DNA of 64,000 bases from Deltaproteobacteria bacterium. GTDB taxonomy: Bacteria; Desulfobacterota; GWC2-55-46. Of the stretch, positions 20,224 to 50,580 are shown piece after piece (positions within the stretch are counted from its first letter, which is position 1; each line of letters begins with the position of its first letter). Location of the stretch: the NCBI GenBank assembly GCA_015075075.1, contig JABTVA010000001.1, positions 51,662 through 115,661 on the forward strand, in the 5' to 3' direction. The translations under genes and the position numbers were made by a program. Below the pieces are notes generated by a model, which had not been told where the DNA came from, did not search any database, and saw only the letters and a program-made list of their open reading frames with translations.

Positions 20224-20384
20224 TATCAGCTTACTGAAAAACTCATTCAGGCTGCTCAAAAAGCTCCAGATGCGAGGCCCCCATTGAAATAGGGGAGCGA
20301 GGCATGAGGCGTACTTTCCGTGTACGCCGCAGTAACGAGCGACGTAGCCTTCGACGCAGATGGACTTTTTCAGCAGCCTGCTAG
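20224..20384 (+). mobile_element. Family A MITE copy A3
   Basis: Consensus match. Abuts the 3' end of the ftsH remnant. Confidence 0.8.
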
Positions 20385-22843: not shown

Positions 22844-25321
22844 TTATGCCGCCGGAAGCCTTATGGAAACGGTGGTGCCTTTACCGGGCTCGGATTCGAA
22901 GTCCATGCTCCCTCCGTGCTCCCTTATTATCGAATAGGATATGGAAAGGCCGAGGCCCGTGCCTCCGGCATCCTCCCTCGTCGTAAAGAAGGGCTCGGTT
23001 ATCCTCTCCAGCACCTCCCTGGACATTCCCGCGCCCTCGTCGCGTACCTCGATGACCACCTCGCCATTTTCCTTGTCATGGAAAGTCCTTACACGGACGC
23101 CCCGAGCCCTCTCCGGGAGCGCGTGGAGGGCGTTGATGACAAGGTTTATGAGCACCTGCTCTATCTTCTGCGAGCTCCCCCGGACGGCAGGGAGGCCCTC
23201 GGCGGTCGAGACCTCGAATTTGTCCGTGTGCTTCATTATCTGGCTGCTCAAGATGGAGACGGCCGCCAGGACCGCCCTGTTCACGTCGAGTTCTCCGTCG
23301 AAGCAGGCCTTGTCCGGCCTCGAGAAGTCCTTCAAGCTATCCACTATCCCCTTTATCCTCCTCGACCCGTCGGTTATCCCTGAAAGGAGCTCGGGTATGA
23401 CCTCGGACATCTCCGAATAAGGGAGCCCCCCGAGGGAGAAGTCCCCGTGCTCCCGGTAATACCCGTCGAGTATCCTTACCGAGTCCTTCCACGCGTCCGC
23501 GAGCAGGGCCGAGTTGAAGAGTATGAAATTATTGGGGTTGTTTATCTCGTGGGCGACACCTGATGCGAGCGTCCCTATTGAGGTCATCTTGTTCGCGTGG
23601 ATGAGCTTGGCCTGCATAAGGCGGGCCTCCTCCTCCATCCTTATGAAGTCGGTCAGGTCCTGGACCGTGCAGAGGACCATCTTACCGTCCTTGAGCTTTA
23701 TGACCTGGCCCCTGGCCGAGAAGGTCACCCTGGTGCCGTCCTTCCTCTCGCCCTCTGCCCTGTCTATCGTGAAACCGGCGTCACGGGCCGAAAGGCTCTT
23801 TATCGCATCCGAGAGGCCGTGGTCCAGAAAGAACGGGGGCGGGTCTGATGAGGCGAGCTCCTCCCTCGAGTACCCGAATAGCGTTATGGCCGCCGGGTTC
23901 GCGTCGGTTATCCTGCAGCTACCGCCATCTATGAGTATCTGCGCGTTCTGGTTCTGCTCGAATATCTGCCTGAACCGCTCCTCGCTTTCCCTCAGGGCGT
24001 CCTCGGCGTTCTTCCGAGCGGTTATGTCCCTTTTTATCCCGAGGGCGAGATCCTTTTCGCCGACCTTGAAGGGCGTTATGGCCATGTCCACCCAGAGGAC
24101 CGAGCCGTCCTTCCTCCGTAGCGGCACCTCCTGCACGAAACCGCCCTTTTTCCAGAGGTCCCTGTGCAGCTTGAGCCTGTCGAACCTCCCGGGGATGGCG
24201 AGCAGGGCCACGTCGGACGAGAGTATCTCCTCGCGCGAATAGCCGACCATCAGGCAGCCCGAGAGGTTTACGTCGAGGTAGCGCCCTTCCATGTCGATGA
24301 CGAACATGCCGTCCATCGCCGATTCGAATATGGTCCTCAGGCGTTCCTCGCTCTCCCTGAGGGCATCTACCGCCTTCCTGCGCTCCGCGGCCTCCTCTAT
24401 GGATTGGAGCGCAAACCCCACGTCCGCCGCGAGGCTCAGAAGGAGGTCCACCATCTTTTCGAAAAAGACCGAGGGGTTTTCGGAGTAGACGGTAAGGGCC
24501 CCGAAGATAGTACCCCTTACCACGAGAGGGAAGGAAGCGCACGCCCTGTAGCCCCGGCTCGCGGCCTCGCCGGCCAGGGGCTTGAGGCCCCCGTCGCCTT
24601 CGATATCAAGGCATACGGAGTAAGAGCCGGAGTCGATGGCCCTGTCCACGGTGCCGGGCCCGGGCGGGATGCCGTCCTGCCTCCTCCGGGCTATCCGGAG
24701 GAAATCATTGTCGCAGCCTGCCGCGGCAAGCGGGACGATCTCGCCTGTCGCTACTCGCGATTTCCCTATCCACGCAGCCATGAACCCGGCCTTTTCAACG
24801 AGTATGCGGCAGGTCTCGGAAAGGACCATCCGCCCGGAGGACTCCCTTACGAGCATCTTGTCGACCTCGGTCAGGGTCTCAAGCAGCCGGTTAAGGGCCC
24901 GGAGCTCCTTTTCAGCCTTCCTGTGCGCCCTTTTCGTGGCATAGTCGCGAAGCTCGCGCTCTATTGCCGGGAGGAGCCTGAAGAGCCTGTCCTTCAGTAT
25001 ATAGTCGTCAGCCCCGGCCTTCATGGTGGTGACCGCCAGGTCCTCGCCCATGAGGCCCGATACGACTATGACCGGCACCTCGAGGCCGCGCTCCCTTACG
25101 GCCTTCACCACCTCGAGGCCGCAGAGCCTCGGCATTATGTAGTCGGATATGATAAGGTCCCAGGGGCCTTTTTCGAGCGCTTCCTGCAGGTCTCTTTCAT
25201 TGTCCACCCTGAGGAAGGACATATCATAGCCGCCGCGCCGGAGCTCGCGCATGAGGAATATGAGGTCGTCTTCCGAGTCCTCGGCGATAAGGACCTTGAG
25301 AGGGATGGTTTCAGGGTGCAT
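22844..25321 (-). CDS. Hybrid sensor histidine kinase: REC-GAF-PAS-PAS-HisKA-HATPase (cytoplasmic)
   Basis: N-terminal REC (DLIISDYIMP), H-box HEINNP, G1/G2 ATPase motifs. Confidence 0.85.
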   Translation of the reverse strand: MHPETIPLKVLIAEDSEDDLIFLMRELRRGGYDMSFLRVDNERDLQEALEKGPWDLIISDYIMPRLCGLEVVKAVRERGLEVPVIVVSGLMGEDLAVTTMKAGADDYILKDRLFRLLPAIERELRDYATKRAHRKAEKELRALNRLLETLTEVDKMLVRESSGRMVLSETCRILVEKAGFMAAWIGKSRVATGEIVPLAAAGCDNDFLRIARRRQDGIPPGPGTVDRAIDSGSYSVCLDIEGDGGLKPLAGEAASRGYRACASFPLVVRGTIFGALTVYSENPSVFFEKMVDLLLSLAADVGFALQSIEEAAERRKAVDALRESEERLRTIFESAMDGMFVIDMEGRYLDVNLSGCLMVGYSREEILSSDVALLAIPGRFDRLKLHRDLWKKGGFVQEVPLRRKDGSVLWVDMAITPFKVGEKDLALGIKRDITARKNAEDALRESEERFRQIFEQNQNAQILIDGGSCRITDANPAAITLFGYSREELASSDPPPFFLDHGLSDAIKSLSARDAGFTIDRAEGERKDGTRVTFSARGQVIKLKDGKMVLCTVQDLTDFIRMEEEARLMQAKLIHANKMTSIGTLASGVAHEINNPNNFILFNSALLADAWKDSVRILDGYYREHGDFSLGGLPYSEMSEVIPELLSGITDGSRRIKGIVDSLKDFSRPDKACFDGELDVNRAVLAAVSILSSQIMKHTDKFEVSTAEGLPAVRGSSQKIEQVLINLVINALHALPERARGVRVRTFHDKENGEVVIEVRDEGAGMSREVLERITEPFFTTREDAGGTGLGLSISYSIIREHGGSMDFESEPGKGTTVSIRLPAA

Positions 25322-25377
25322 TCGCTCTTGGGTTGGCTATGGATTTAAAAATCGTAACAATTGTAACCCACTTTCAG

Positions 25378-30268: not shown

Positions 30269-31375
30269 TCAGACCGAATCGAACGAGTCTATGTCCGACT
30301 GGCGTATTATCTTCTTGAGCTTGTCAAGTGCCTTTACTTCTATCTGGCGCACGCGCTCCCTGGTCACGCCGAACGACTTTCCTATCGCTTCGAGCGTCTG
30401 GGGCTCGTCCTCCTCGAGGCCAAACCTGAGCTTCAAGATCGTCCTTTCGTTCTCATCGAGCATCCCGAGCCAGGAGTTTATCCTGTCGACCCTCCGGGAA
30501 TCGTCGATGACCTCCATCGGGGTCGGGAACCTGTCGTCCTCCAGCCTGTCGAGGAGCGACTGGTCGGTGTCGTCCGGAAAGCTCGCCTCGAGAGAATAGC
30601 TCTTCTTGCTGATGGTGTTGAGCTTCTTGACGTACCTCCCGGAAAGCCCCGTCTTTTCCGAGAGCTCTACGAGGCTCGGCTCCCTTTTAAGCGCCCTCGT
30701 AAGCTCCCTGTTTGCCCGGGTGAGCTTGGATATGTCAGCGGTCACGTGTATAGGGAGCCTCACAATAGAAGACTGGTTGGCTATGGCGCGCTCTATGGCC
30801 TGCTTTATCCAGTAGGTCGCGTAGGTGGAGAACTTGCACCCCTTCGTGGCCTTGAACCGCTCGACGGATTTTATGAGGCCGATATTCCCTTCCTCTATGA
30901 GGTCCTGGAGCGGCAGCCCCCTGTTAAGGTACCTCTTCGCTATGTTGACCACGAGCCGGAGGTTCGCCTCTATCATCTTCCTCCTGGCCTGGGTATCGCC
31001 TTTCGCGATCTTCCTGGCGAGTGTTTTCTCCTCGTCGGATGTCAGGAGCGAGAACTTCTTTATGCCGCTGAAATATACCTTCACCGAATCGGTCGCGGTA
31101 GTTTCCTTTTCCCTGTCCTCTTTCCTGCCGCGCCTTTTCCCGGCAGGCTTGGAGGCCGCTTCGGGCCCGAGGGCCGACTCTTCCTTCATGTAGTCGCGGC
31201 CCGGGACGGCCTTTCCGGCCTCTTCCGCTTTATTCCTCCGGTAGGGGAGGGGCCACTTCTGCTGGGTCCGGGACACAGCCCCTTCCGAGAGTTTTTTCAT
31301 GGGCACGAACGGCTTTTCCTCTCCGTTTCCGCCGAAGCCCACGTATTTCCTGTTCTTGCCTTTGCCTTTGAACAT
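30269..31375 (-). CDS. Sigma-70 family sigma factor, RpoS/RpoD-like, with a basic N-terminal extension of about 110 aa
   Basis: Regions 1.2, 2 ([10 protein letters not shown]), 3 and 4.2 ([19 protein letters not shown]). ATG at 31373-31375 is preceded by AAGGAGGAG. The six-frame track extends the ORF to a TTG at 31402. Confidence 0.85.
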
Positions 31376-31398
31376 TTGCTCCTCCTTGGCGCTGATTT

Positions 31399-32196
31399 TC
31401 AAAGATGTTTTTGAGGAAGGCCCTCTCCCTGGCGGAACCCCTGGGCCTCTGGCCCCGCCCGCCTGGCCGCAGCGTTTACGAGTGAAGATACCGGCACAGG
31501 CTCATCCAGCCTGAGCCCCGATAAAACGGAGCCGTCCGCCTCTGTGGACCACGCCACGACCGCCTTTCTCCCGGTCTCGAACCCGCGGCCTATGCCGAGG
31601 CGAAGCCCGATAACGGCGCCTGCCTCAAGTAGGTCGCTGCCGGGGCATTCCACCTTCACGCCGTGCGTGGAAATGTCGACAGTCCGGGCCGCGAGCTCCG
31701 CGCCGCAGGCCGTGACATGACAGTCCAGGGATATCTCGATCCTCCCCTCGGCCCTCTTGCCTCCGCCGCGCCCCAGGATGCCCAGAAGCGACTTCTCCAT
31801 GAGCTTTTCAACCTTTTCGAGGAACTCTGATATCCGGAAAGGCTTGGGGAGGCAGGGGGGTCCGGCATCCGCGACGCGGCCAAACGCCAAATCGGGGTTG
31901 CCGGTCACGAAAAGGAACTTCTCCCGGAGCCCGGGGCTATTCTCCAGGGCGGCCCTGTAGAACTCCATGCCACCGAGCCCGGGCATGTTCATGTCGGAGA
32001 CGACCAGGTCGTAGCGGAAACCAGAATCCCGGAGCCTCTCAAGGCCCTCGAGCCCGTGCCTTGCGGTGTCCACCTGGTAGCCGGCGACGCGCAGCACCTC
32101 CGAGCAGAGGTCCCGTATGTTCTCGTCGTCGTCGACGACAAGTATCTTCCTCGAGTCGAGCATGCCTGTATCCACGAGCTGAGTTTTCCCGCTCAC
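31399..32196 (-). CDS. Response regulator with a C-terminal PilZ domain (REC-PilZ, putative c-di-GMP-binding)
   Basis: Canonical REC ([19 protein letters not shown]), PilZ RxxxR (KRAEGR) and DxSxxG (DISTHG). Stop is about 23 nt upstream of the sigma start codon. Confidence 0.8.
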
Positions 32197-33194: not shown

Positions 33195-34610
33195 CTAATG
33201 CTTGCGAGGGTCCTTTCTCTTGAGCCGCTTATTGAGCGCCTGGCGGGTAATCCCAAGGAGGTTCGCGGCTATGCCCTGGTTCCCGTGGGAAAGCTCAAGG
33301 GCCCTGGCTATGAGGACGTCTTCCGATTCCTTCAGGGTGGGGAAGTTCTCGGCGGATACGGGCGGCCCCGGCTTAAGCTCCTTTTGGGGGGCTGCCGCCG
33401 TCCTCTCCCGGCCTATTATGTCCCTGAAGTCTTTCCATTGAAAGCACGCCGCCCTTGTGCCTGGCGTAACCGCGTCGTAGACCATTGCCTTGGAGCCCCG
33501 GACGTTGCCCGGGAAATGATAGGTGGACATGAGGGTGGCGAGCTCGGGCGGCGGGTAGGCTTCTTCTTTTTCATGGCGTCCGCAGCCCTCTGCCAGGAAT
33601 GGTTATGAGCACCGGGATGTCCTCCTGGCGCTCGCGGAGCGGCGGATGTGGACCTGGTGGGCCGGAGCCTGTAGTAGGGTCCTTCCTGAAGCCGCCTTCG
33701 GCAATGAGCCTCAGGAAGTCGTGGTTCGTGGCGACGACTATCCGGACGTCGCCTTCTTGGGGACGTCCGATCCCAGCGGGTAGTATTTCTGTTCCTGCAG
33801 GAGCCGCAGGAGCTTCACCTGGGAGGACTCGTTCGTGTCCCCTATCTCGTCAAGGAAGAGGGTCCCGCCGGCGGCATGGGCTATGAGCCCCTCCCTCGCC
33901 TCGTCCGCCCCGGTATACGCGCCCTTCTTGTGGCCGAAGAGCGTGTCCGAGAACATGGTGTCGTCAAGCCCGGCCACGTTCACGGCAACGAACTCCCCTT
34001 TCCTGCCGCTTATGTCGTGGACCGCCCTTGCGAAGAGCTCCTTACCGACCCCGGTCTCGCCGGTTATGAGGACCGGCTGCTGTGTGGCGGCTATGACCTC
34101 GACGTACTGGAAGATGGCCCGCATCTTCTTGTTTACGGTGATTATGGAGGAGAAGGCTTCCTCGTTCTCGAGGTCGCCCATCAAGAGGCTCCGCTTGAGG
34201 GAAAGGACCTCAATCCGGAGCGAATGGAAATCGAGCGCCCTCCTTACGCTCGCCTCGAACCTGCTCCGCTCCACGGGCTTCACGAGGTAATCGAACGCCC
34301 CGGACTTCATGCATTCAACCGCGGTCTCGATGTCGTTTACGGCCGTGAGTATTATGACCGGGACCATCGGGTGGCTGTTTGCTATCTCATGGAGGAGCCG
34401 GGTCCCGGAGACGTGGGGCATGGAAAGGTCGAGGACGATGGCCGCGACCTCCTGCTTCTCGAGGAGCGGCATCACCTGCCTGCTGTCGTCGACCGTAAGG
34501 ACCTGCTTTATCCCGGCGCTACGGAGCAAGACGCTGTAGCTCTTAAGTATCTGGGCCTCGTCGTCGACAAGGAGGACCGGCAGGGGCATTTTACCGGTTT
34601 TTACCGACAT
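33195..34610 (-). pseudogene. Sigma-54-dependent (NtrC-family) response regulator, frameshifted between the AAA+ and HTH domains
   Basis: REC + AAA+ (GETGVGKE, GAYTGA) in 33738..34610. Fis-type HTH in 33195..33530. Frame is broken near 33540-33740. Confidence 0.7.
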
Positions 34611-34692
34611 TCTCGTTCCTTTCCTTAAGCCCGGGTGCCTGATGCGGGCCGCCCCCGGCGACAAACTATCTTCGCTCCGGGCGGCGCATCCG

Positions 34693-36303
34693 TCAAGGGG
34701 AAAAGACCCTCCCCAGCCTGCATATTATGAACTGGTCGTCTATGGAGCTGAACGTGCGGCACTCCTCTTTAATGGCGTACATGTTGAATTTGCCCGCGGT
34801 ACTCTCTATCTGCAATATGTTCGGGAAAGGCACTATGATGTATGCCGGGCCGCTGTGGTTCCTCAAAACCTCCCTCATCTCCGCCTGGAATTTAGTATCT
34901 TTATACGGTGCGGTAAGATTGCTCTCGACCCTTACGAAACGGACGTCCTCGGGGAAAAAGGGTATTATATACGAATAGGGGCGTATCCCGGCCATGAGCA
35001 CCACCGAGTCCCGCTCGATTTCAGCCGGGGGCCGCTTAAGCCCGAAAAGCGTCTCCGACCAGTCCGTCCTCCCCCAGTCAGGGACCTTGACCGCGGAGAC
35101 AATGGCAATGAAGAGCGCGGCGACGGAGAGGCGAAACCAGGGCCTGCTTTTCACAAGGCAGCTTAAAAGCGCCGCTATCAATACCGGAGACAGCAGTTCC
35201 AGCGGCACAAGATATCTGTAGTACGGGAACCTTATCTGCCATACGACGTAAGAGCCGACAAAAAAGACCGTTAGGAATATATCCTTTCTCCTGCCATCCA
35301 GTCCAGCCAGTTTCTCATTTCTCTTTCTGAAAAAAATATAGACCGTCGCAAGGGCCGAGATGACGATTAATATGTAGGCCGCCGCAAAGCGGATGTCCCT
35401 GAAGTGCAGCTCCAACGCCAGGTTGTTCAGGCGCGCGAAATAGAAGGGATAGAAAAGTGTCTGGACGGCGTCGCGGGGGAAGAAACGCAAGTCGGCAATC
35501 TCGACGGGGTCGAAATACCCGGATTTGAAAAAGGAGTTGAAAAACGGGAAAAAGGGGCTGCCGAATTTTTCCCATAGCTTGAGCATCCAGAAACCCGAGG
35601 ACAACAGCATGCCTGAGAAAATACCGAAGCTCCAGCCGACTCCGTTCATAACCGCATCCTTTAGACCCCTCGACACGACAAGAACGGCCATGAGGGCGCC
35701 CGCCGCGTAGATTAATTGAGTGAGTTTAAGCCCGACTCCGGCCCCCATGACAAGGCCGCTAAAGAAGAGAGATAAAAGGAACGCCCTGCGGCCCGCTTTC
35801 TCAAGGGCCCCGAGCATCAGGAGAACCGACAACAGCACGAGGACGGAAACAAGGCTGTCGTTGAGGGTGGCGCCGAGCTCGGAAAGGAACCCGGCCCCGA
35901 ACGTGCCTGTTGCGGCCGTGAAAAACGAAAGGACTATCCTTTTAAGCCCTTCTTCAAAGGTGAATAGCTTAAGGCCTATGAGGTACAGAAGCCAGAAATT
36001 GACCCCGTGCAGGGCTCCCATCACAAAGCCCGCGTACACCGGCGGAAGGTACAGGAAAGAGATATAGAACGGCAGGTCCGTTAAAGGGTTCAGGTAGGTC
36101 TGGAACTGCGCCGGGCCGTAATCAAAACCGAGACGGCCGTTGAGGAAGGCGTACGGGTTGTAGAAATGGTAGTTCTTCAGGTCCCAGTCTATGACCGGGC
36201 CCAAGGCGACCGACAGGGACCCGAAGAAGATAACGCTTATGAAAAGCACCAGTAAACCCTGGGCCCTGAAAGGAGAAAAATTGTTTTTCCGTTCAGCACT
36301 CAT
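34693..36303 (-). CDS. Polytopic membrane protein, GT-C-fold glycosyltransferase-like (DUF2029 / mannosyltransferase-like)
   Basis: About 11 TM helices. Assignment by architecture only. Confidence 0.55.
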   Translation of the reverse strand: MSAERKNNFSPFRAQGLLVLFISVIFFGSLSVALGPVIDWDLKNYHFYNPYAFLNGRLGFDYGPAQFQTYLNPLTDLPFYISFLYLPPVYAGFVMGALHGVNFWLLYLIGLKLFTFEEGLKRIVLSFFTAATGTFGAGFLSELGATLNDSLVSVLVLLSVLLMLGALEKAGRRAFLLSLFFSGLVMGAGVGLKLTQLIYAAGALMAVLVVSRGLKDAVMNGVGWSFGIFSGMLLSSGFWMLKLWEKFGSPFFPFFNSFFKSGYFDPVEIADLRFFPRDAVQTLFYPFYFARLNNLALELHFRDIRFAAAYILIVISALATVYIFFRKRNEKLAGLDGRRKDIFLTVFFVGSYVVWQIRFPYYRYLVPLELLSPVLIAALLSCLVKSRPWFRLSVAALFIAIVSAVKVPDWGRTDWSETLFGLKRPPAEIERDSVVLMAGIRPYSYIIPFFPEDVRFVRVESNLTAPYKDTKFQAEMREVLRNHSGPAYIIVPFPNILQIESTAGKFNMYAIKEECRTFSSIDDQFIICRLGRVFSP

Positions 36304-37947
36304 CTGATGGGTCCAGACGCATTCCGTTCAGGAAGCCTTGCGAGCCTGCAGAGTATGAACCTGTCCTCGCCCTCCGCGGCCAAGCCCTTTGCCGATGAGA
36401 ACGAGCTGCAGTCATCTTTCCTCGCGTACATGCCGTATTCACCGGTTATTTTTTCTATCTGGAAGACATTTGCGAACGGGACCAGCAGATAGACCGGGCC
36501 TGCGTGCTCATTCAGCAACTCCCGGATTTCCTTCTGGTAAAGGGTGTTCTTATGGGGAGCGGTGAAGTTGCTTTCCACTCTTACGAAACGGATGTCTTCC
36601 GGAAAAAACGGGATCAAGTACGAGTACGGCCTCTGACCGGCCATGATCACCACCGAATTCTTCTCGATATACGCAGGAGGCGTCTCCAATCCGAAATAAG
36701 ACTCAGACCAGTTCGTCCGTCCCCAATCCGGGACCTTGACCATCGAGATGATGCCTATAAGGGCCGCTGCAACGGAGAGATAAAACCAGGGCCTGCTCCT
36801 CACAACGTAGCTCAAGAGCACTACTACCAAGGCCGGGGCAAGGAGCTCGAGCGGTATCAGATACCTGTAATACGGGAACCTTATCTGCCATATCACATAA
36901 GAGCCGACGAAGAAAACGGCCAGAAAGAGGTATTTCGAGCTGTCCCAGCCAGGCCGATTTTCACCGGCCTTTCTGAGATAGCGGTGTGCAAGCATCAAGG
37001 CCGAAAGGACAAGCAGGATATAGACTACCGCAAAGCGGACCTCCCTGAAGTACTGTTCAAGCACCAGATAAAAATTTAACCGGGCGAAATAGAAAGGGAA
37101 GAAAAGGGTCTGGATAACTCCCTCGGGAAAGAACCTGGTGTCAGCGATTTCGACTGGATCGAAATAAGGGGATTTGAAAAAAGCATTGAAGAACGGAAAG
37201 AACGGGCTCTCGAACCTCGTCCAGAGCATGTACATCCAGAAACCCGAGGAGGACAGAACACCGGCGGCGATTCCGAAGGCCCATGCGAACGCGCTCGCAA
37301 CGGATCTCTTCAATCCTCTTGAGACGGCAAGGACGGCCATGAAGGCGCCCGCGGCATAGATCAATTGCGTAAGTATCAGCCCGACCCCGGCCCCGAGGAC
37401 AAGGCCGCTCAGGAAAAAGGATATCAAGACCGTCTTGCGCCCCGTTTTCTCAAAAAGCCCCGAGCATCAAGAGGACCGACCACAATACGAATATCGCGAC
37501 GAGGCTGTCGATGAGGGTGGTGCCGAGTACGGACAGGAACCCGGCGCCGAAGGCGCCGGCAGCGGCAGAGGAGAATGAAAGGGCGCTTCTTTTGAGGCCA
37601 TCCTCAAAGGTAAATAGCTTAAGGCCGATGAGGTACAACAGCCAGAAATTAATTCCGTGCAGGGCGCCCAGCACAAAGCCCACGTAAACCGGCTTAAGGT
37701 ACAGAAAGGAAATATAGAACGGCAGGTCCGACAAGGGGTTCAGGTAGGTCTGGAACTGCGCCGGCCCGTAATCGAACCCGAGACGGCCGTTCAGGAAGGC
37801 GTACGGGTTGTAGAAATGGTAGTTCTTCAGGTCCCAGTCCACGACCTGGCCGAAAACGACGGATAGTGCCCCGAAAAAAAGCAGGCTTGAAAGAAGCACC
37901 AGCAGGCTCTGCGCTCCAGGGGTGCGAGAAGGTTTTTTTTGCCGCAT
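36300..37947 (-). pseudogene. Tandem paralog of the upstream GT-C-like membrane protein, split by a frameshift near 37430-37450
   Basis: 37450..37947 encodes the N-terminal third and 36300..37427 the rest. Both align colinearly with 34693..36303 (e.g. DWDLKNYHFYNPYAFLNGRLGFDYGPAQFQTYLNP identical). Confidence 0.6.
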
Positions 37948-38086
37948 TTTTTAAAGCTCCAAGCGGGACCACAAATGAATTAGGCCGGGATTCGCCGGCC
38001 CGTTACTTTATACATCCTTTCGTGTTAGCGCTTCAATGGGAAATTGGCCGGAGGGGAGGCGCTGACGCATCGCCGGGGCCGGGCTC

Positions 38087-40972
38087 TCAGTTCACCAGTT
38101 TCGAGACGACGCTGCTGAGCTCGTCTATCGTGAAAGGCTTCTTGATGGAAGGCGCGCCCACCTTGGAAAGGAAGGCCTGCGTCTCGGGGTTTATGCTGTC
38201 TCCCGATATGAATATCATCTTCTTCAGGGCCTCCGGCCTCAGGACCTGCACCTCGTTGTAGAACCCCTTGCCGCCGAGCCCCGGCATCTTGATGTCGCTT
38301 ATTATGAGGTCGTAGTCCGAGCCGGACACCTTGATGATGGCGTCCTCGGCGGACGAGCACCTGTCCACCACGAAGCCGAAGCCGGTGAGCGAGTCCATGA
38401 GGAGGTCCAGCACTATGGGCTCGTCGTCAACGACGAGGGCCTTCTTGCCGTCCACCCTTAACTTCTCGGATGCTTCCGTGCCGCCGTAAAAGAGGCCTTC
38501 GGAGTCGTCGCCCACGACCGGCAGCTCCACTATGAAGGTGGTCCCGCTCCTTCTCCGGCTGGACGCGTATATGTTGCCGCCGTGCTCGTGCACTATGCCG
38601 TACGAGATGGAGAGGCCGAGCCCGGTCCCCTTCCCCACCTCCTTTGTGGTAAAGAACGGGTCGAATATCCTGTTCGCTATCTCTTCGGATATGCCCTTGC
38701 CGGAATCCTCGACGCTTACGACTATCTTCCCGTTGCTGTGCCTGCTCGTTATCCTGATGGTGCCGCCGGAGCCGCCCTCCTTTATCGCGTCGCTCGCGTT
38801 GTTTATGAGGTTCAGGAACACCTGCTGTATCTGGTTGGCGTCCAGCATGGTCCCGGGTATCGAGTCGTCAAGGTCGAGGTCGACTTTTATGTTGTCGATC
38901 CTCAGCTGGTATGCCCTGAAATCCAGGCTGTCCCTTATTATGCGGTTTACGTCGCCGTACTTCTTCTCGGGCCTCTTCCACCTGGCGAAGGTGAGAAGGT
39001 TCTCGATTATCTTCTTGCAGCGGTGCGAGGCCTCGTTTATCTTCCGTATCTTGGAGCTTGCGCTCTCGCCGAGCTTGTCCTCGAGGAGGAGCTCGGAGAA
39101 GCACATTATCCCGGTAAGCGGGTTATTGAGCTCGTGCGCGACCCCGGAGACCAGCTCCCCGAGAGACGAAAGCTTGTCCGACTGGAGGAGCTTCTGCGTA
39201 AGGAGCCGTTTTTCCGTAACGTCGTGGACGTAGACGACGGCGCTCCCGGGCTTTTCCCCGTCCAGCACCGGATAGGACTGCCAGACGAAGACCTTGCCGT
39301 CCGGCGTCGTGAACTCCATCTCGGCGGTGGACGAGTGCTCTATCGACTTCCTTACCGGGCAGTTCCTGGCCGGCGGCTCAAGCCCGAACGCGGCGTATAC
39401 GTTCCTGCCGACGGCTGCCCGCTCCGTGAGGCCCGTCATCTCGAGGAAAGACCTGTTCGCCTCGACTATCTTGTAATCGCTCCCGACGAGCAGTATGAAG
39501 TCCCTTATGCCGTCGTAGATGAGCCGGAGCTTGTTCTTGGCCTTCTTGAGCTCCTCCTCTTCCTTGAGTATTATCCTGTTAGCCTTCTGGAGCTCGGTAT
39601 TTTTCCTGTCCAGGTCCTCGTTAAGGAGCTTCAGCTCCTCGTTTATGGCATGGAGCTCCTCGGTCTGGCTCTGTGTTTCCTCGTACGCAATCTCGAGCTC
39701 CTCGTTGGATATCCGGAGCTCTTCGTTCAGGTGGGCAAGCGCGGTGTTCTTCGCCTCTATCTCGGCAAGGTACCTGGCCTTCTCGGCTTCCCTTCCGCCC
39801 GCCTCGTCCGCCATCCTGTTGAATACCTTGGCGAGCACGGCTATCTCGTCCACGGCCTCGGCGTCCTCGACCACTATCCTCACCCCCAGGTCGCCCCTGC
39901 CGTACGCAAGGAGCTTCTCCTTTACCTCCTTGAGGGGCCTCGTTATCCTGTTGGTAGAGACGAAGGCGGCAATGAGCGCGAAGCCGAAGCCTATGAGGGT
40001 TATTACGGCTATGACCAGCTGGTTTTCCCTCTGGATGGACCACAGCCTCTCCTTGGAGATGCCGACGTGCAGGGAGCCGACTATATTGCCCCTCGAGTCC
40101 CTGATCGGCTCGGACATCGATATCAGCGAAAGCCCCCCGACGGTCATCTCGCCGAGGAAAGGCTTGCCGGCCGCAAGCTCCGCATAGGCCGTCCCGTTTA
40201 CGCGCGTGCCGCGCATGTTCCTCCCGTTCTCGTCGGCTATGTTGGTCGATACGCGCACACCCATGGCGGATATGGTGGTGAAGAACCCTGGGAGCTTCCG
40301 GGACACCATGTCGGGTACGAAGCTGTCGTTATTAAGAACATCCCCTGTGATTATGGTTCCGGTTACCGCGCCCCGTCCGTCCAGCACCGGCGTGACCACC
40401 ATAAGCGCCAGCACGCCCGGGGAGTCGCCGGCGGGCGCTTCCGCGTCCGGCGACGCGTTCAGGGCAAGCTCCGGCCCCTCGAGCCTCAAGGCCGCCTTGT
40501 CGAGTAGCTCGGTGGAGGTCCGGGCCTCCCTGCCCTCCACGGCCTGCCTGGTAAGCCCGCCGAGGGGGTAGAGGTCGCCGGTGGACGCGCTGTTGAGCCT
40601 TGCAATGATTCTGCCGTCCGCGTCGGTCACGGCCCAGATGTCCACATAGGGCCTCGACTTCTTCCAGGAGACCATGCTGTCCCTGAGATACCTGGCGTTC
40701 CCGGTGGCGACCGCGTCCTGTATCTCGCGCATTGCCGCGGCCTGGAGCATGCCGTAGCGCATCTGCTCGCCGCGGACGTAATACTCGGTCCACGCCGCCT
40801 TTATGCCCGTGGAGACCTGCTCGACCGCGTGCTCCATGAGCCTCGTGTCAATCACCCTGTAGGAGATATAGGCAAGGAGGAACATCGGGACAAGGACGAC
40901 GGAGAGGAAGACGACCGTGAACTTGAAACCCATAGGCCGTCCGTAGAAGTACTTGAGCGGTCTCATCGGCAT
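38087..40972 (-). CDS. Hybrid sensor histidine kinase: TM-double Cache-TM-HAMP-NEEL coiled coil-PAS-HisKA-HATPase-REC
   Basis: Periplasmic region of about 280 aa, repeated NEEL heptads (NEELRISNEELEIAYEETQSQTEELHAINEELKLLNEDL), H-box HELNNP, C-terminal REC (DLIISDIKMP). Confidence 0.85.
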   Translation of the reverse strand: MPMRPLKYFYGRPMGFKFTVVFLSVVLVPMFLLAYISYRVIDTRLMEHAVEQVSTGIKAAWTEYYVRGEQMRYGMLQAAAMREIQDAVATGNARYLRDSMVSWKKSRPYVDIWAVTDADGRIIARLNSASTGDLYPLGGLTRQAVEGREARTSTELLDKAALRLEGPELALNASPDAEAPAGDSPGVLALMVVTPVLDGRGAVTGTIITGDVLNNDSFVPDMVSRKLPGFFTTISAMGVRVSTNIADENGRNMRGTRVNGTAYAELAAGKPFLGEMTVGGLSLISMSEPIRDSRGNIVGSLHVGISKERLWSIQRENQLVIAVITLIGFGFALIAAFVSTNRITRPLKEVKEKLLAYGRGDLGVRIVVEDAEAVDEIAVLAKVFNRMADEAGGREAEKARYLAEIEAKNTALAHLNEELRISNEELEIAYEETQSQTEELHAINEELKLLNEDLDRKNTELQKANRIILKEEEELKKAKNKLRLIYDGIRDFILLVGSDYKIVEANRSFLEMTGLTERAAVGRNVYAAFGLEPPARNCPVRKSIEHSSTAEMEFTTPDGKVFVWQSYPVLDGEKPGSAVVYVHDVTEKRLLTQKLLQSDKLSSLGELVSGVAHELNNPLTGIMCFSELLLEDKLGESASSKIRKINEASHRCKKIIENLLTFARWKRPEKKYGDVNRIIRDSLDFRAYQLRIDNIKVDLDLDDSIPGTMLDANQIQQVFLNLINNASDAIKEGGSGGTIRITSRHSNGKIVVSVEDSGKGISEEIANRIFDPFFTTKEVGKGTGLGLSISYGIVHEHGGNIYASSRRRSGTTFIVELPVVGDDSEGLFYGGTEASEKLRVDGKKALVVDDEPIVLDLLMDSLTGFGFVVDRCSSAEDAIIKVSGSDYDLIISDIKMPGLGGKGFYNEVQVLRPEALKKMIFISGDSINPETQAFLSKVGAPSIKKPFTIDELSSVVSKLVN

Positions 40973-41793
40973 TTCCTGTAGATGTTGAGGCCGCGCCCGA
41001 GCAGCTCGTACCTTGCGGAATACATGTGCGGCAGCACCTCCGCCTTTCCCATGACCAGTATGCCGCCGGGGCGGAGCGCGTAATCGAGCTTCGCGAAGAC
41101 CTTCTCCTGGAGGGGCTTGTTGAAGTATATGAAAAGGTTCCTGCAGAAAAGTATGCTCACCCCCCGTATGGAAGGGCTCTGGACTATGTCGAGGGTGCCG
41201 AACCGCACCAGGCCCCTCAAGTCCATGCTCACCCGGTAGAAGCCGTCCGCCGGCACGAAGTACTTCTCCCGGAGCGCCGGCGAGACGTTCGCTATCGCTT
41301 CCTCCCTGTATACGGCCCTCCTGGCCTGGTCAAGCGCGTCGCAATCGATGTCGGTCGCGAATATCCGCGAGCCTGCAAGCGCCTCGGGGCTCATGGCCTC
41401 GGCAAAGAGCGCGCCGAGAGAATAGGCCTCCTCGCCGTATGCGCACCCGCAGCACCAGGATTTCAACGGCGTATTGCGGAACTCGCGCCTGACGATGCCT
41501 TCCAGGACGGAGAAGACCTCCGGTTCCCTGAAAAACTCGCTTACCTTTATCGTGAGCGTGGAGAAGAGCCTGTGGTACTCGTAGGGGTCTTTTCCGAGGA
41601 TATGGAGGTAGTCTTCGCAGGAGCGCGCCCTGGCGGAGTGGAGGAGTTTCGAGACCCTGCGCGAAAGCGTTGACCTCTTGTAATTTCTGAAATCCCAGCC
41701 CCGTTCCTCATAGACCTTCTCCAAAAGAGAGGAAAGTCCGTCTGAGGAACCGCTCTGGCCGTGCCTATGGAGGGTCCCGTGGACAATATTCAT
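40963..41793 (-). CDS. cheR: CheR-type protein-glutamate O-methyltransferase
   Basis: SAM-binding CGCAYGEEAYS and CRNLFIYF motifs. The stop overlaps the kinase start (ATGCCGATGA). The alternative upstream start at 41862 lies inside the family C repeat. Confidence 0.8.
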   Translation of the reverse strand: MNIVHGTLHRHGQSGSSDGLSSLLEKVYEERGWDFRNYKRSTLSRRVSKLLHSARARSCEDYLHILGKDPYEYHRLFSTLTIKVSEFFREPEVFSVLEGIVRREFRNTPLKSWCCGCAYGEEAYSLGALFAEAMSPEALAGSRIFATDIDCDALDQARRAVYREEAIANVSPALREKYFVPADGFYRVSMDLRGLVRFGTLDIVQSPSIRGVSILFCRNLFIYFNKPLQEKVFAKLDYALRPGGILVMGKAEVLPHMYSARYELLGRGLNIYRKCR

Positions 41794-41826
41794 AGTTGTA
41801 TACCAGGAAGAGTAAAGGCCAAAGAT

Positions 41827-41990
41827 AGCAGGGTATTGAAAAAACCCTGCCAAGCAATCCACGGATGGATTGCAAATTGCGAAGACTATCCCAAGTCGAG
41901 CAATTTGTAATGCCTGGACGGATTCATTCCGGCCAAGCCGTGGTTGGAAAAGCCCAAAAGGACTTTTTCAATAACCTGATAGGAGGGAGA
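41827..41990 (+). mobile_element. Family C MITE-like repeat, copy 2
   Basis: About 85% identical to 1369-1530. Confidence 0.7.
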
Positions 41991-42151
41991 TTTGGACTAC
42001 GAATGCCCCCTCAATTAGAACAGATAGCACAAATCTGTTTTTTTTGCAATAAATTGTTTAGGTTGCTGGTTTCGCCGGTCGAAATTGGATCCATCCAACC
42101 GTGCCTGAGGGCGCGCTGCCGGCTCCCTGCGGGAGGCGGGCCTTTTTCCCG

Positions 42152-42186
42152 AAAAACCTTGAACATAACGCGGTTTCCGGGTTATC
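42152..42186 (+). promoter_or_regulatory. Putative sigma-70 promoter (TTGAAC-N18-TATCAT) upstream of the dsrE2-like gene
   Basis: Hexamers read from the sequence. Would give a near-leaderless transcript if the ATG at 42196 is used. Confidence 0.35.
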
Positions 42187-42195
42187 ATAACTTTA

Positions 42196-42704
42196 TGGCA
42201 ACCGGTCTTCAGGGCGCTCAGGCGGAGCCCAAAAAGAGCGTCACCATCGTCCTTTTCAGCGGCGACCTCGACAAGGCCATCGCGGCCTTCGTCATTGCCA
42301 CGGCCGCCGCTTCCATGTGCATGAAAGTCAATATCTTCTTCACCTTCTGGGGTCTTAACGCCATAAAGAAAAAGAGCGGGCTCATAAAAGGGCAGAACTG
42401 GATGCAGAAGATGCTGAATATCGTGAACTACGGCCATGCCAGGAAGCTCGCCCTCTCGAAGCTCAACATGATGGGCATGGGACCGGCAATGCTGAAGACC
42501 ATGATGTCGAAAAAGCGGGTGCCGAGCCTCGATGAGTTCATAAAGACCGCTTCCGCCCTGGGCGTAGGGTTCTACGCCTGCGAGATGAGCATGACGGTAA
42601 TGGGCCTCCGGAAGGAAGACTTCATAGACGAGTGCCGCGACGTAATCGGGGCGGTCAGCTATATCTCGATAGCAAGGGACTCGAACGTCAACCTTTTCAT
42701 TTGA
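42196..42704 (+). CDS. DsrE2-like (DsrE/DsrF-like family) sulfur-relay protein
   Basis: VTIVLFSGDLDKAIAAFVIATAAA...IFFTFWGL motif block. Start codon uncertain (42196 ATG or 42238 GTG). Confidence 0.6.
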
Positions 42705-42745
42705 GGCCGGGTCCGCCATGCGGAACGGCACAACCGGCGGACTTC

Positions 42746-42903
42746 TAACAGCTTGCCGTTTTTATTCAGGCTGCTCAAAAAGCTCCAGATGCGAGGCCCC
42801 GTTGGAACAGGGGAACTGGGAATGAGGCGTACTTTTCGTGTACGCCGGAGTGTCAAGCGACGTAGCCTTCGACGCAGATGGACTTTTTCAGCAGCCTGCT
42901 TAA
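42746..42903 (+). mobile_element. Family A MITE copy A5, inserted between dsrE2-like and tusA-like
   Basis: Consensus match. Confidence 0.8.
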
Positions 42904-42928
42904 GCCGTTCGGAAAAAGAGAGGGTATC

Positions 42929-43165
42929 ATGGAAGAGTTTGCTCCTGACAAGACCCTTGACGCAAGGGGCTTAAGCTGTCCCATGCCGTCCGTAAAGACG
43001 GCCCTGGCGCTCGAAGGGATGGTCCCGGGGCAGGTGCTCCTGGTGCTTACGGACGACCCTGTCTCCCAGAAAGAGCTGCCTCTCTGGGCCGAAGCGACCG
43101 GCAACAAGCTCCTGGCCCTGGACCGGGAGGAGAAGACCATCAGGATATTCCTCAGGAAGGGATGA
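42929..43165 (+). CDS. tusA: TusA-like sulfurtransferase (CPxP motif)
   Basis: LDARGLSCPMP. The six-frame ORF starts inside the MITE; the ATG at 42929 is more likely. Confidence 0.75.
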   Translation: MEEFAPDKTLDARGLSCPMPSVKTALALEGMVPGQVLLVLTDDPVSQKELPLWAEATGNKLLALDREEKTIRIFLRKG

Positions 43166-44645: not shown

Positions 44646-45149
44646 ATGACCAAGAGGCTCCTCCTGCTTTCAGCGCTTGCAGCCGTTCTCATCTCGGGCT
44701 GCGCGCCGGTCATCTCAAAGGAAACGCTCGGGACCGTCAACCGCGGGCTCGGGTTCGGCGAGGTCGCATCCAGGCCCGCCGACTACGTAGGCGCGTCGGT
44801 GGTCTTCGGAGGGACCATCCTCGAGACCCGTAACGAAGAGGGCCGGACTGTCGTCGAGGTCCTTCAGGAAGGCCTTGATTCGAGGCTCAGGCCCTCAGAG
44901 CGGGGCGAATCCGAAGGGCGGTTCCTTGTCGAGTTCGAGGGGTTCAGGGACCCGGCCATATACTCGAGGGGCAAGAGGATAACCGTCGCGGGCGAGGTCA
45001 TCGGCACCGAGAGGCTCAGTATCGGCAGGGGCACATACGACTATCCGGTAATACAGCCCAGGGAGCATACGCTCCTCGACCCCCCTTCATACGACCCGGG
45101 GCCGCGCATCGGCATAGGCATAGGTCTCGGCTACACCCGCGTGAGGTGA
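44646..45149 (+). CDS. Slp-family outer-membrane lipoprotein
   Basis: Lipobox LISGC, Slp-like length and hydrophilic body. Confidence 0.6.
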   Translation: MTKRLLLLSALAAVLISGCAPVISKETLGTVNRGLGFGEVASRPADYVGASVVFGGTILETRNEEGRTVVEVLQEGLDSRLRPSERGESEGRFLVEFEGFRDPAIYSRGKRITVAGEVIGTERLSIGRGTYDYPVIQPREHTLLDPPSYDPGPRIGIGIGLGYTRVR

Positions 45150-47785
45150 CCGGCCTCCCCGCCGACAGTCCTCAGGAATGCCTTGACCACCTCCGGGTCG
45201 AACTGCGTGCCCGAGCACCTCTTGAGCTCCCGCAGGATGTTCTCCAGGGGCAGGCCCTTCCTGTAGGGCCTGTCGGCGCTCATGGCATCCACCGTGTCCG
45301 CCACGGCCAGTATGCGCGCCATGAGCGGTATCTCGCCGCCCTTGAAGCCCCCGGGATAACCCGACCCGTCGTATGACTCGTGATGGTGCATTATGGCAGG
45401 AACTATCCTCTTCATCTGCCTTATGGGCGAGAGTATGTCCGCGCCCTTCTGCGGGTGCCTCCTTATGACGGCTATCTCCTCGTCGGTGAGCCTGCCGGGC
45501 TTATCCAGTATGGACTCGTAGGTCCCGAGCTTACCTATGTCGTGGAGGAGCCCCGCGAGCTCCATGTCCTTGAGATCCTCCGCCGAGAAGGACATCTCGC
45601 GCGCTATTTCCATCGCGTATTTCGTGACCCTGTCCGAGTGCCCCTTGGTCCAGGAGCTCTTGGCGTCGATCGCCTCGGAAAGGGTCTTCACTATGCCGAG
45701 GAAGAGCTCGCTCAAGTCGCTTACGAGCCGCGCGTTCTCGAGGGCCACGCCTATCTGTGAGGCGAGCTTCTCCATGACCGATAAGTCGTCGGAGGTAAAG
45801 GCGGCCTTCCTCCTGGCCCCGACCGTAAGCACCCCGACCACCTCTCCCTTTATCGCGAGCGGGACCCTGAGGTGCGAAAGGAAACCGTCCTTGAATAAGG
45901 CCTCCTCGAGGCGCTGCCTGACGGATTCGTTTATATCAGGCACGAACTGCGGCCTGCCGGTACTCAGTATGTCGGTCGTAGTCGTGTCAGAAAACGGGAT
46001 GAGGCTGCCTTTCTCAAGGGATATTCCGAAGCCCGCCTCGTATACGAACCCGCCCTTCTCCCTGTCGACGAGGGCCACGGTGGCCCGGTCGCAGGAGATT
46101 ATCTTCGAGACCATCCGGGCGGCTATCTCCAGTATCTCGTTGGGCTCGAGGGTGGAGAGGATGGACTTGTCTATCTCGTGCATTATGCTTATGGTCTCGA
46201 CCTTCCTCGAAAGGTCGAGCGCCCTGTCTATCGAGTCCTGGTAGAGCTTGGCCTCGTCCAGCGCGGTCGAGACCTGGTAGGATATGCCGCCGAGCACCTC
46301 CTTGTCCCTCCTTGTAAGCCCTCCGCTGTACTTGCCAGGCGGGCAGGTATAGAGGCAAAGGAGGACCCCCAGCCATTCGCTTTTGCGGACAAGGGGCAGG
46401 ATTATCGCGGCCTCGGCGCCCCCCGACCATTCGAGCGCCTCTTTTCCCCCGCCGCCGCCCTCGAAGACCTCGATACCCGGGCCGGACTCCATCGCTTTCA
46501 TGATGAACGGCAGGTCGGGCTTAAGCGGGTTTACCCTGAAGAGGGAGGCCAGGTCGGCCGGGAGCCCCTTCTGGGCCGAGGGCTCCAGGACGCCTTTTTC
46601 CCTGTCCCAGAGGTACGAAATGCAGCAGTCCGCCTCCATTATGGAAAGAAGGCTCTCGACCACGTGCCCCATGAGCTTGTCTATGTCCGTCGTGTGCTCG
46701 GTGGCAAAGGCTATGGCGAGGAGGTGCCTCGTTATCTCCATCTCCTCTTTCATCCTCTGCGAGGTCTCCTTAAGCTCGCTGAAGAGCTTCGCGTTCCTGA
46801 TGCAGAGGGCCGCGTGGTTCGCAAGGGTCTGGAGGAACGGGACCTCGTTCTGGGGGAACTCTTCTTTCGCGGAGCATATGGTGAGAACGGCAATGGGCTT
46901 CCCGGCCTCGGTTATCGGAAAAGAGGCCGCGGACCCCGGCCCGGCTTCCGTACCGTCCGGGACGGCCTTCCACGGGGCCGGGACCCGGTTTTGGACCTCC
47001 GGGACCCCGCTCCTTACGGCCCTCGACGAGAGATCCCCGGCGCACTGCAAATGACCGGAAGGGTCCAGTGCGGCCTCGGTCACCGAAGGTGAGCGCCCAT
47101 CGTCGGCCGTTGCTAACGTCCGCGGCAGTATCTCTCCGGTATCGGGGTCGAGGAGCCCCACCCATGCCATCCTGAAGCCGAAGCTGACGGCCGTGCCGCA
47201 TATCCTCTTGAGCCTGAACTCGAGATCTAAGCTCCCCATTACGTCCTGCGAGAGCTCGTATACGAGCCTTTCCCTCTCGGTCCTCCTCTTCTCCTCCGTT
47301 ATGTCCCGGAATATCTGGATGGCGGTGGGCTCCTCCTTTTCAAGCACGTAAAAGCTCACGTTGTAGACCCTGTCGGGGCCCGCAATCCTTATCTCCTCCG
47401 TGCAGGCGTGCGGCTCCCCCTTTCCGAGCATGTGCCTGCACGCCTCGAAGGGCCCGTCCATCTTCGGGAAGACCTCGTAATACCTCCTCCCGATTATCGA
47501 GCTGAAAGGCATGCCTGCGGCGTCCTGGTAGGCCCTGTTGCATTTCAAGACCCTCATGTCGGAATCGTGGATGAGTATGGGGTCGAGTATGCTGTCGAAG
47601 GTCGCTTCCCATTCCCTCTTGGACTTCATGATGCCCTCGGCAATGGCGGTGTTGTCCTCGAGGAGCGAGAGCATCGCACGGCGCGTGCTCATGAACTCCT
47701 TTTCGCGCTCCATTGCCCTTTCAAGCTCTTTCCTGAGCTTTCCCAGTTCCGCGGAGGCGCGGTCGTTTGAGGCGGGTTTATGCAA
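45131..47785 (-). CDS. PAS-GAF-GAF-GAF-HD-GYP c-di-GMP phosphodiesterase
   Basis: C-terminal HD (LLHDIGK) and HHHESYDGSGYP motifs, 884 aa, intact. Confidence 0.85.
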   Translation of the reverse strand: MHKPASNDRASAELGKLRKELERAMEREKEFMSTRRAMLSLLEDNTAIAEGIMKSKREWEATFDSILDPILIHDSDMRVLKCNRAYQDAAGMPFSSIIGRRYYEVFPKMDGPFEACRHMLGKGEPHACTEEIRIAGPDRVYNVSFYVLEKEEPTAIQIFRDITEEKRRTERERLVYELSQDVMGSLDLEFRLKRICGTAVSFGFRMAWVGLLDPDTGEILPRTLATADDGRSPSVTEAALDPSGHLQCAGDLSSRAVRSGVPEVQNRVPAPWKAVPDGTEAGPGSAASFPITEAGKPIAVLTICSAKEEFPQNEVPFLQTLANHAALCIRNAKLFSELKETSQRMKEEMEITRHLLAIAFATEHTTDIDKLMGHVVESLLSIMEADCCISYLWDREKGVLEPSAQKGLPADLASLFRVNPLKPDLPFIMKAMESGPGIEVFEGGGGGKEALEWSGGAEAAIILPLVRKSEWLGVLLCLYTCPPGKYSGGLTRRDKEVLGGISYQVSTALDEAKLYQDSIDRALDLSRKVETISIMHEIDKSILSTLEPNEILEIAARMVSKIISCDRATVALVDREKGGFVYEAGFGISLEKGSLIPFSDTTTTDILSTGRPQFVPDINESVRQRLEEALFKDGFLSHLRVPLAIKGEVVGVLTVGARRKAAFTSDDLSVMEKLASQIGVALENARLVSDLSELFLGIVKTLSEAIDAKSSWTKGHSDRVTKYAMEIAREMSFSAEDLKDMELAGLLHDIGKLGTYESILDKPGRLTDEEIAVIRRHPQKGADILSPIRQMKRIVPAIMHHHESYDGSGYPGGFKGGEIPLMARILAVADTVDAMSADRPYRKGLPLENILRELKRCSGTQFDPEVVKAFLRTVGGEAGHLTRV

Positions 47786-48851: not shown

Positions 48852-50580
<1,729 letters not shown>

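Follow-up and report, generated by a model that had tools for sequence, protein, structure and literature searches.

What does a stand-alone CheR methyltransferase act on when its gene overlaps that of a sensor histidine kinase? This question was raised by a stretch of 64,000 nucleotides (nt) from a Deltaproteobacteria bacterium (GenBank assembly GCA_015075075.1, contig JABTVA010000001.1, positions 51,662 to 115,661), hereafter called the window, whose minus strand carries both cheR and the kinase gene. The kinase is a hybrid transmembrane protein with an array of NEEL-type heptads on a long helix. We lean, with modest confidence, towards the following answer: the pair would be a split, membrane-anchored, CheB-less version of the CheB-CheR-NEEL-PAS-kinase fusion proteins, with the Glu-Glu pairs of the array as methyl acceptor.

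The NEEL array and its association with cheR

A sequence-only reading of the window had drawn attention to a NEEL-repeat helix in the kinase. The string that it quoted was found exactly at residues 416 to 454, inside an unbroken array of eight heptads extending to residue 471 (NEELRIS NEELEIA YEETQSQ TEELHAI NEELKLL NEDLDRK NTELQKA NRIILKE). In each heptad, a Glu-Glu pair precedes the single Leu and is itself usually preceded by an Asn, three residues from that Leu. This was the sole such array among the 359 open reading frames (ORFs) of the window. In an AlphaFold2 (AF2) model of the kinase, built from 55 orthologues with a mean predicted local distance difference test score (pLDDT) of 76.9, a single continuous helix from residue 415 to residue 488 spans the array. 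Two coiled-coil registers are conceivable, one with Asn in position a and Leu in position d, the other with Leu in position a and the residue three positions later (A/Q/I/L...) in position d.

Conservation was measured as the mean frequency of the top residue over 72 full-length orthologues at 39 to 95% identity. The core of the array (residues 430 to 454) scored 0.947, second only to the H-box, which was the most conserved 25-residue window of the kinase (0.983); the corresponding values were 0.661 for the whole protein and 0.62 for the helix just upstream of the array. In four consecutive heptads, all seven positions were 79 to 100% conserved, including the polar ones (88 to 100%), and the Glu-Glu pairs were the most invariant feature of the array. 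Judged from this alignment, such fixation of polar positions would not be expected of a merely structural coiled coil.

The presence of cheR was then compared among the loci of the kinase family. At all of the 13 loci that could be evaluated (the window, L001 to L005, L007, L008, L087, L089, L090, L091, and L170), cheR was found directly upstream of the kinase gene, with a spacing of -4 to +138 nt. The pair was kept down to 39% kinase identity, the value at L005, where the neighborhood is quite different. As the sequence-only reading had stated for the window, CheR is encoded by a separate gene, with its stop overlapping the kinase start in the window and split from the kinase at 13/13 family loci. 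All known carriers of the split pair were uncultured metagenome-assembled genomes (MAGs) of Thermodesulfobacteriota/'Deltaproteobacteria' and Nitrospirota. Two variants of about 860 amino acids (P0077 at L087 and P0081 at L089) lack the PAS domain, yet they keep both the array and cheR. Therefore, the association tracks NEEL, not PAS. Conversely, P0084 (at L006) and P0085 (at L088), homologues that share the Cache sensor, have neither a NEEL array nor cheR (0/2 versus 13/13). The alignment of P0084 with the window kinase showed a clean gap of 56 residues, equal to eight heptads, at about residues 427 to 482, so that the array is gone from the second heptad on; the Pfam coordinates of HAMP and PAS independently gave the same 56-residue difference. 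This gap, together with the absence of cheR, indicates that the array behaves as a whole-heptad cassette whose presence tracks cheR.

These results bear on the possibility that the array is a structural signaling helix only and that its link to CheR is a leftover of descent from a fusion, with no present function. The plain continuous helix in the AF2 model is compatible with such a role, and coiled-coil linkers made of whole heptads often join sensor modules to kinase modules. However, the polar positions are far better conserved than the flanking helix over the same range of identity, the cassette is dispensable in a homologue without CheR, and the tight linkage was kept at every evaluable locus while neighborhoods changed. 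We therefore give this explanation very little credence.

The association was also found well beyond the family. The NEEL plus PAS alignment was scanned over GTDB species genomes and JGI metagenomes, with search patterns derived from the array only. Each scan gave more than 480 related loci, and the best 80 per scan (160 in total) were classified with CheR and CheB profile hidden Markov models built for this analysis. At 140 of these 160 loci, CheR was encoded in the array's own ORF or adjacent to it, and at 110 of the 140, CheB was also present in cis. Four GC-rich metagenome loci (L120, L136, L140, and L153), where the frame of the host ORF was misassigned, were classed solely by the adjacent CheR. 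Ten loci were cut at the contig 5' end, and three had a match in the PAS part only or no array. The related loci returned by the scans came from Bacteroidota, Proteobacteria, Acidobacteriota, Planctomycetota, Chloroflexota, and other phyla, and as a control, none of the 33 unrelated PAS kinases among the kinase matches had such an array. The attachment of CheB varied. It was fused at most NEEL loci. In Chitinophaga and Leeuwenhoekiella (L054, L059, L071, and L082), CheB had a gene of its own, directly 5' of that for the CheR-NEEL-kinase, and no CheB was found within 7 kb of the CheR-NEEL-kinase gene of Geomonas sp. Red32 (L040). In addition, the array and PAS domain of two CheB-CheR fusions (P0097 and P0100), which were among the distant matches of the kinase, aligned to residues 385 to 595 of the window kinase (tblastn, 7e-7 and 2.5e-9). 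The survey bears out the earlier claim that the NEEL helix is characteristic of CheB-CheR fusion kinases. We consider it quite probable that CheR and the kinase are functional partners, with CheR binding to the NEEL array.

CheR and the possible methylation of the array

Members of the CheR family consist of an all-alpha N-terminal domain and an alpha/beta domain that binds S-adenosylmethionine (SAM); their SAM-binding and catalytic motifs are GCxxGEExYS, the arginine of FFRE, and the tyrosine of IYF. The window protein has this two-domain architecture, both domains being above the Pfam gathering score of 27 (PF03705, CheR_N, 1.3e-10, 41.3 bits; PF01739, CheR, 6.7e-43, 146.8 bits). It matched the solved CheR structures of Bacillus subtilis (PDB 5FTW, 1.6e-32) and Salmonella (1BC5, 9.5e-28), and when aligned to these two, the motifs FFRE, GCxxGEExYS, and CRNxxIYF were intact, the conserved motif positions being 87, 116, and 222 of 276 residues. 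The mechanically called ORF, which starts at a GTG and covers 40963 to 41862 (299 amino acids), is probably too long. Because orthologues of 275 to 278 amino acids fully cover the 276-residue product that starts at the ATG at 41793, this shorter gene was taken as cheR.

The nearest relatives of this protein were mostly multidomain CheB-CheR proteins. A search of 1.84 billion cluster representatives gave scores of 164 to 283 bits for the best 150, compared with 68 to 117 bits for the canonical CheRs in the PDB. Among these best 150, 103 were at least 450 amino acids long, 71 had CheB, and 75 had NEEL arrays. Several of the cheR orthologues had been named 'CheB/CheR fusion protein' by JGI. These relatives suggest, although not decisively, that the window CheR is related to that of the fusions.

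A role of the array as substrate was suggested by its consensus in the fusions. Outside the split family, 146 distinct arrays with 1,064 heptads, nearly all from CheB/CheR fusion proteins, gave the consensus N(74%)-E(86%)-E-L(84%)-Q(45%)-[S/T/A](83%)-[S/A/T](59%). The classical methylation-site pattern of methyl-accepting chemotaxis proteins (MCPs) is E-E-x-x-small-small, and the fusion-type consensus, which is E-E-x-x-small-small repeated at 7-residue spacing, is a good fit to it. We propose that a periplasmic ligand would be sensed by the double-PDC/Cache domain of the kinase and that the signal would pass through the second transmembrane (TM) segment and HAMP into the long helix, whose central eight heptads are the NEEL array, and then to the PAS, DHp/CA, and REC domains. 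The co-produced CheR would recognize the array and, most probably, use SAM to methylate the gamma-carboxyls of the Glu-Glu pairs. The resulting neutralization of charge would alter the packing of the paired helices or their stability and thereby bias the signal that passes from HAMP to the kinase core, which would amount to a covalent setting of gain or memory, like that provided by the methylation helices of MCPs. Since neither CheB nor CheD is encoded at the locus, the mark might be reset by an enzyme acting in trans, by spontaneous ester hydrolysis, or by protein turnover. We regard the methylation of the array Glu residues by CheR as evenly balanced, and we infer its effect on kinase output.

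Several observations weigh against this proposal. The split family has the Glu-Glu pairs at 7-residue spacing, but at least one small residue follows E-E-x-x in only three of the eight heptads; the small-residue positions are partly kept in EE-LE-VA, EE-TQ-SQ, and EE-LH-AI. Neither the locus nor the flanking DNA of the orthologous split-pair loci was found to encode CheB or CheD, and reversible adaptation is therefore not evident. Because the small-residue positions are only partly kept and no eraser is encoded at the locus, the case for methylation is weaker for the split family than for the fusions, and in the split pair the mark could conceivably be one-way or only slowly reversible. At seven of the 160 surveyed loci, an intact array was found with no CheR in the available flank (L041, L100, L104, and L164, as well as L128, L147, and L162, which lie on short contigs with less than 500 nt upstream). 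The arrays of these CheR-less proteins have four to six heptad pairs, and at L100 a CheR is encoded 3.5 kb away; such proteins may rely on a CheR encoded elsewhere. Finally, in a neighbor-joining tree of CheR domains, the split CheRs and their Nitrospirota relatives were placed beside the sampled fusion clade and were not nested in it. This tree, which has no bootstrap and a sample biased towards matches to the query, does not distinguish fission of a fusion from an ancestral split form.

Alternatively, the NEEL helix could be a docking or regulatory site for CheR and not its methyl acceptor. Binding of CheR would then regulate the kinase or sequester CheR, or the methylated residue would lie elsewhere, for example in the REC domain or a response regulator. 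An interaction is enough to account for the co-occurrence and the conservation, which do not call for catalysis on the helix; the heptads of the split family depart from E-E-x-x-small-small; and the reported methylation of PhoP by Salmonella CheR (PMC8546571) implies that CheR can also act on two-component proteins that are not MCPs. However, docking alone does not readily account for the CheB esterase domain that stands beside CheR and the array in most fusions, or for the CheD of one split variant. Such an arrangement is most easily explained if a substrate close by undergoes both methylation and demethylation. The invariance of the Glu-Glu pairs within the array also speaks against docking alone, which we consider unlikely.

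Other observations that count against the proposal concern chemotaxis. The window encodes one MCP (17326 to 18618, minus strand) with the textbook methylation motifs ASEELSATS and SAEEQSATT, the catalytic and SAM motifs of the window CheR are canonical, and che-cluster CheRs are not very much more distant, one of them (L172) being 39% identical to a member of the split clade and only moderately more distant from that clade. CheR could thus be an ordinary chemoreceptor methyltransferase for MCPs such as this one, its adjacency to the kinase reflecting co-expression only. We find this distinctly improbable. The MCP, which carries a hydrophobic stretch at its N terminus and lacks a sizeable periplasmic domain, lies 20 kb from the cheR-kinase pair with no CheA or CheW nearby, and at L001, the closest of the orthologous loci, it is unlinked to the pair. 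In flanks of 4 to 8 kb, no MCP was listed at 11 of 12 family loci, and at the other one (L003), a PilJ/MCP gene lies about 3.8 kb downstream of the kinase gene. A tblastn search of the window with the CheB domains of two fusions, one che-cluster CheB, and CheD and CheW seeds gave no match, and Pfam scans of about 40 window ORFs gave no che gene besides that of the MCP, so that no CheA, CheW, CheB, or CheD was found within the 64 kb. The claim that CheB is absent from the window therefore held at the sensitivity of tblastn, and CheB is absent from the flanks of the orthologous loci as well. Moreover, cheR follows the NEEL cassette, and the window protein scored far under the cut-off of the NCBIfam CheR equivalog (NF007902, 116.2 versus 435 bits). 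As for the surroundings of the MCP gene, its neighbor (15525 to 17024, minus strand) encodes a REC protein whose middle part is long, acidic, and of low complexity and whose C-terminal region is rich in Glu, Arg, and Ala.

Taken together, the co-occurrence at 140 of 160 loci, the linkage at 13/13 versus 0/2 loci, and the mostly CheB-CheR multidomain nature of the nearest CheR relatives argue for a CheR that is dedicated to the kinase and acts outside the CheA/CheW pathway. The sequence-only reading, which had suggested a methylation-modulated pathway distinct from chemotaxis with the coiled coil as the CheR substrate, is partly supported, by strong comparative evidence. If the array is methylated, the proposal may be extended, more tentatively and somewhat short of what we would call probable, to a large, phylogenetically broad class of 'methyl-accepting histidine kinases', in which a dedicated CheR would write on the NEEL array and a fused or adjacent CheB or CheD, where there is one, would erase, with the window pair acting as a one-way methylation latch or memory on a kinase that senses the periplasm. 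Receptor methylation would then be a general setting of gain or memory in two-component kinases, beyond chemotaxis and the arrays of MCPs with CheA. Fusion kinases are abundant, and the comparative evidence points to the NEEL array as the target of their methylation enzymes, of which no account was found in our literature search. The split pair is the most tractable form for a test: enzyme and candidate substrate are separate proteins, P0084 provides a natural control without the cassette, and no esterase complicates labeling.

Architecture of the kinase and organization of the locus

The features of the pair are listed in Table 1. Residues H613, D893, and K945 of the kinase were conserved. 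The assignment of a double-Cache sensor, made earlier from the sequence alone, was supported by several results. The region between the two TM segments matched sCache_3_3 (residues 213 to 310, 5.3e-16), part of Cache_3-Cache_2 (9.1e-11), and, weakly, dCache_1; homologues of the kinase matched dCache_3; and in the AF2 model, a long stalk helix is followed by two alpha/beta modules (residues 112 to 212 and 218 to 306) with a pLDDT of about 85 to 93. A Foldseek search of the PDB with the full-length model was dominated by the kinase core, gave no structural match to solved dCache domains, and was uninformative for the helix. By Pfam, no CheB domain was found in either the kinase or CheR. Within the PAS domain, Cys538 (39359 to 39361, motif NCPV) was invariant in 17 diverse family members, with CxxC in some relatives, and this pattern suggests that it may be a redox or cofactor site.

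Table 1. Features of the cheR-kinase pair, with coordinates in the window
Feature	Coordinates	Strand	Remarks
cheR	40963..41793	-	Stand-alone CheR-family protein-glutamate O-methyltransferase; 276 aa from ATG 41793
Gene junction	40963..40972	-	ATGCCGATGA; cheR TGA over kinase ATG
Hybrid sensor histidine kinase	38087..40972	-	961 aa; ~85 full-length orthologues
TM1, residues 16-38	40859..40927	-	Translation FKFTVVFLSVVLVPMFLLAYISY; inside model helix 14-80
Periplasmic double-PDC (dCache-like) sensor, residues 39-317	40022..40858	-	Pfam and AF2 model
TM2, residues 318-340	39953..40021	-	Translation QLVIAVITLIGFGFALIAAFVST
HAMP, residues 340-392	39797..39955	-	Pfam HAMP at residues 340-390, 2e-08
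NEEL array, residues 416-471	39560..39727	-	8 heptads; proposed CheR-recognition and methyl-accepting segment
PAS, residues 481-589	39206..39532	-	PAS_9, 6.2e-11; PAS_4, 7.5e-09
HisKA/DHp, residues 604-665	38978..39163	-	HisKA, 1.3e-16; predicted phospho-acceptor H613
HATPase_c, residues 711-819	38516..38842	-	1.3e-25
C-terminal REC, residues 846-956	38105..38437	-	Response_reg, 3.8e-14; D893 invariant
Terminator-like GC-rich hairpin	37982..38001	-	~85 nt 3' of kinase stop; T-tract weak; consensus match only

The overlap of the cheR stop with the kinase start, also noted earlier, was confirmed from the junction sequence, which reads ...AGGAAATGCCGATGAGAC.... The cheR frame ends in AAA TGC CGA TGA and the kinase frame begins with ATG CCG ATG, which gives an overlap of 10 nt from the first kinase ATG and of 4 nt (ATGA) from the second. 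The second ATG, which has AGGA 7 nt 5' of it, is the called start in a 95%-identical kinase orthologue, where the overlap with cheR is 4 nt. Such a stop/start overlap is an ordinary operon feature and unremarkable alone. Neither a sigma-70-like promoter nor a SAM riboswitch was found on the minus strand 5' of cheR; the latter result follows from scans for Rfam families and tRNAs, which gave no match anywhere in the window.

On the plus strand, divergent from cheR, are DsrE-family and TusA sulfur-relay genes (41865 to 43165). This arrangement recurs in L001 to L004, sometimes with a P-type ATPase gene inserted, and is not found in L005, L087, and L170. Just 3' of the kinase gene, two tandem paralogous genes (34693 to 36303 and 36300 to 37947, minus strand) encode polytopic membrane proteins that are 68% identical to each other and have no Pfam match; the kinase-proximal copy is split. 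In the close relative L001, a single copy of 537 amino acids is found instead of the tandem pair.

Some other genes of the window appear broken relative to intact relatives (20381 to 22281, 33195 to 34664, 36300 to 37947, and 48852 to 49703). For FtsH, only the C-terminal part is found as one ORF, with short ORFs upstream; a sigma-54 response regulator ends at 308 amino acids, compared with 472 in L001; the split membrane protein is in parts of 165 and 375 amino acids; and for a ribonucleotide reductase, only the C-terminal part is present as an ORF. This suggests assembly indel errors or pseudogenes. The cheR and kinase genes, unlike these, are intact. A REC-PilZ gene overlaps the start of the gene for an RpoD-like sigma-70 factor (30269 to 32196, minus strand), and the two are also adjacent in L001. 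Two regions are dense in signaling genes (22844 to 28362 and 45131 to 47785), encoding a REC-GAF-PAS kinase, a dCache_1-HAMP-PAS(x4) kinase, and a PAS-GAF-GAF-HD-GYP-type protein; no NEEL array was found in their signaling proteins.

Comparison with known systems

The closest comparison is with the CheB/CheR fusions, which form the KEGG annotation class K13924 ('two-component system, chemotaxis family, CheB/CheR fusion protein'). The examples compared were P0097, P0100, and the loci L009 to L086. The first two consist of CheB, CheR_N, CheR, about 160 unannotated residues, the NEEL array, PAS_10, PAS, HisKA, HATPase_c, and REC. The stretch that separates CheR from the array has no Pfam assignment in either protein and covers residues 482 to 640 in P0097 and 485 to 690 in P0100 (about 160 to 200 residues). 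In the window system as in the fusions, PAS, HisKA, HATPase_c, and REC come after a heptad NEEL coiled coil; the coiled coil and PAS domain are homologous, and the window CheR appears to be of the same broad clade as theirs. In contrast to the fusions, the window system encodes its CheR in a separate, overlapping gene, it has no CheB domain or gene, and the split family has no counterpart of the region of about 160 residues between CheR and the array. Its PAS domain did not score as PAS_10, and its kinase is a transmembrane protein with a periplasmic double-Cache domain and HAMP, neither of which was reported by Pfam in P0097 or P0100. The window system thus lacks two defining features of the fusion class, CheB and the fused CheR, and is a variant of the class, not a member. 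A literature search found no functional study of the fusion kinases, the split module, or the NEEL motif, which is not proof that there is none; its one related finding was the methylation of PhoP described below.

In the adaptation of MCPs, where CheR and CheB act on the helices of Tar and Tsr, a CheR-family enzyme is likewise combined with heptad-spaced Glu-Glu pairs on a long helix beside HAMP, and the proposed logic, in which charge neutralization would tune signaling, is the same. Unlike an MCP, however, the window kinase gave no match to MCPsignal (PF00015) at an E value of 0.01 or below, its output is through a classical DHp/CA module with no CheA or CheW, and no esterase is encoded at the locus. 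Its array also retains the small residues of the site consensus only in part.

A CheR-family enzyme that modifies a two-component protein other than an MCP has been described in Salmonella, whose CheR reportedly methylates R112 of the response regulator PhoP (PMC8546571). That case differs from the present one in that a single chemotaxis CheR acts on an unlinked response regulator and on an arginine, with no dedicated gene pair or repeat array.

Finally, a MAG of Ca. Desulfofervidus auxilii (L171, 2582 to 8609) encodes, in this order, a response regulator (HTH-REC), a CheD-HDOD-HD protein, CheR, and a HAMP-PAS-GAF-NEEL-HisKA-HATPase kinase whose array (NEELQSQ SEELSAL NEELQAQ AEELAAQ) lies directly before DHp. 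Judged from its gene and domain order, this is a second, differently built split CheR-kinase system, with a deamidase/esterase of the chemotaxis type that is CheD and not CheB. As in the window, a stand-alone CheR is encoded immediately upstream of a NEEL-array kinase; unlike in the window, a CheD-domain protein is present, the array is joined directly to DHp, and the sensor modules are different.

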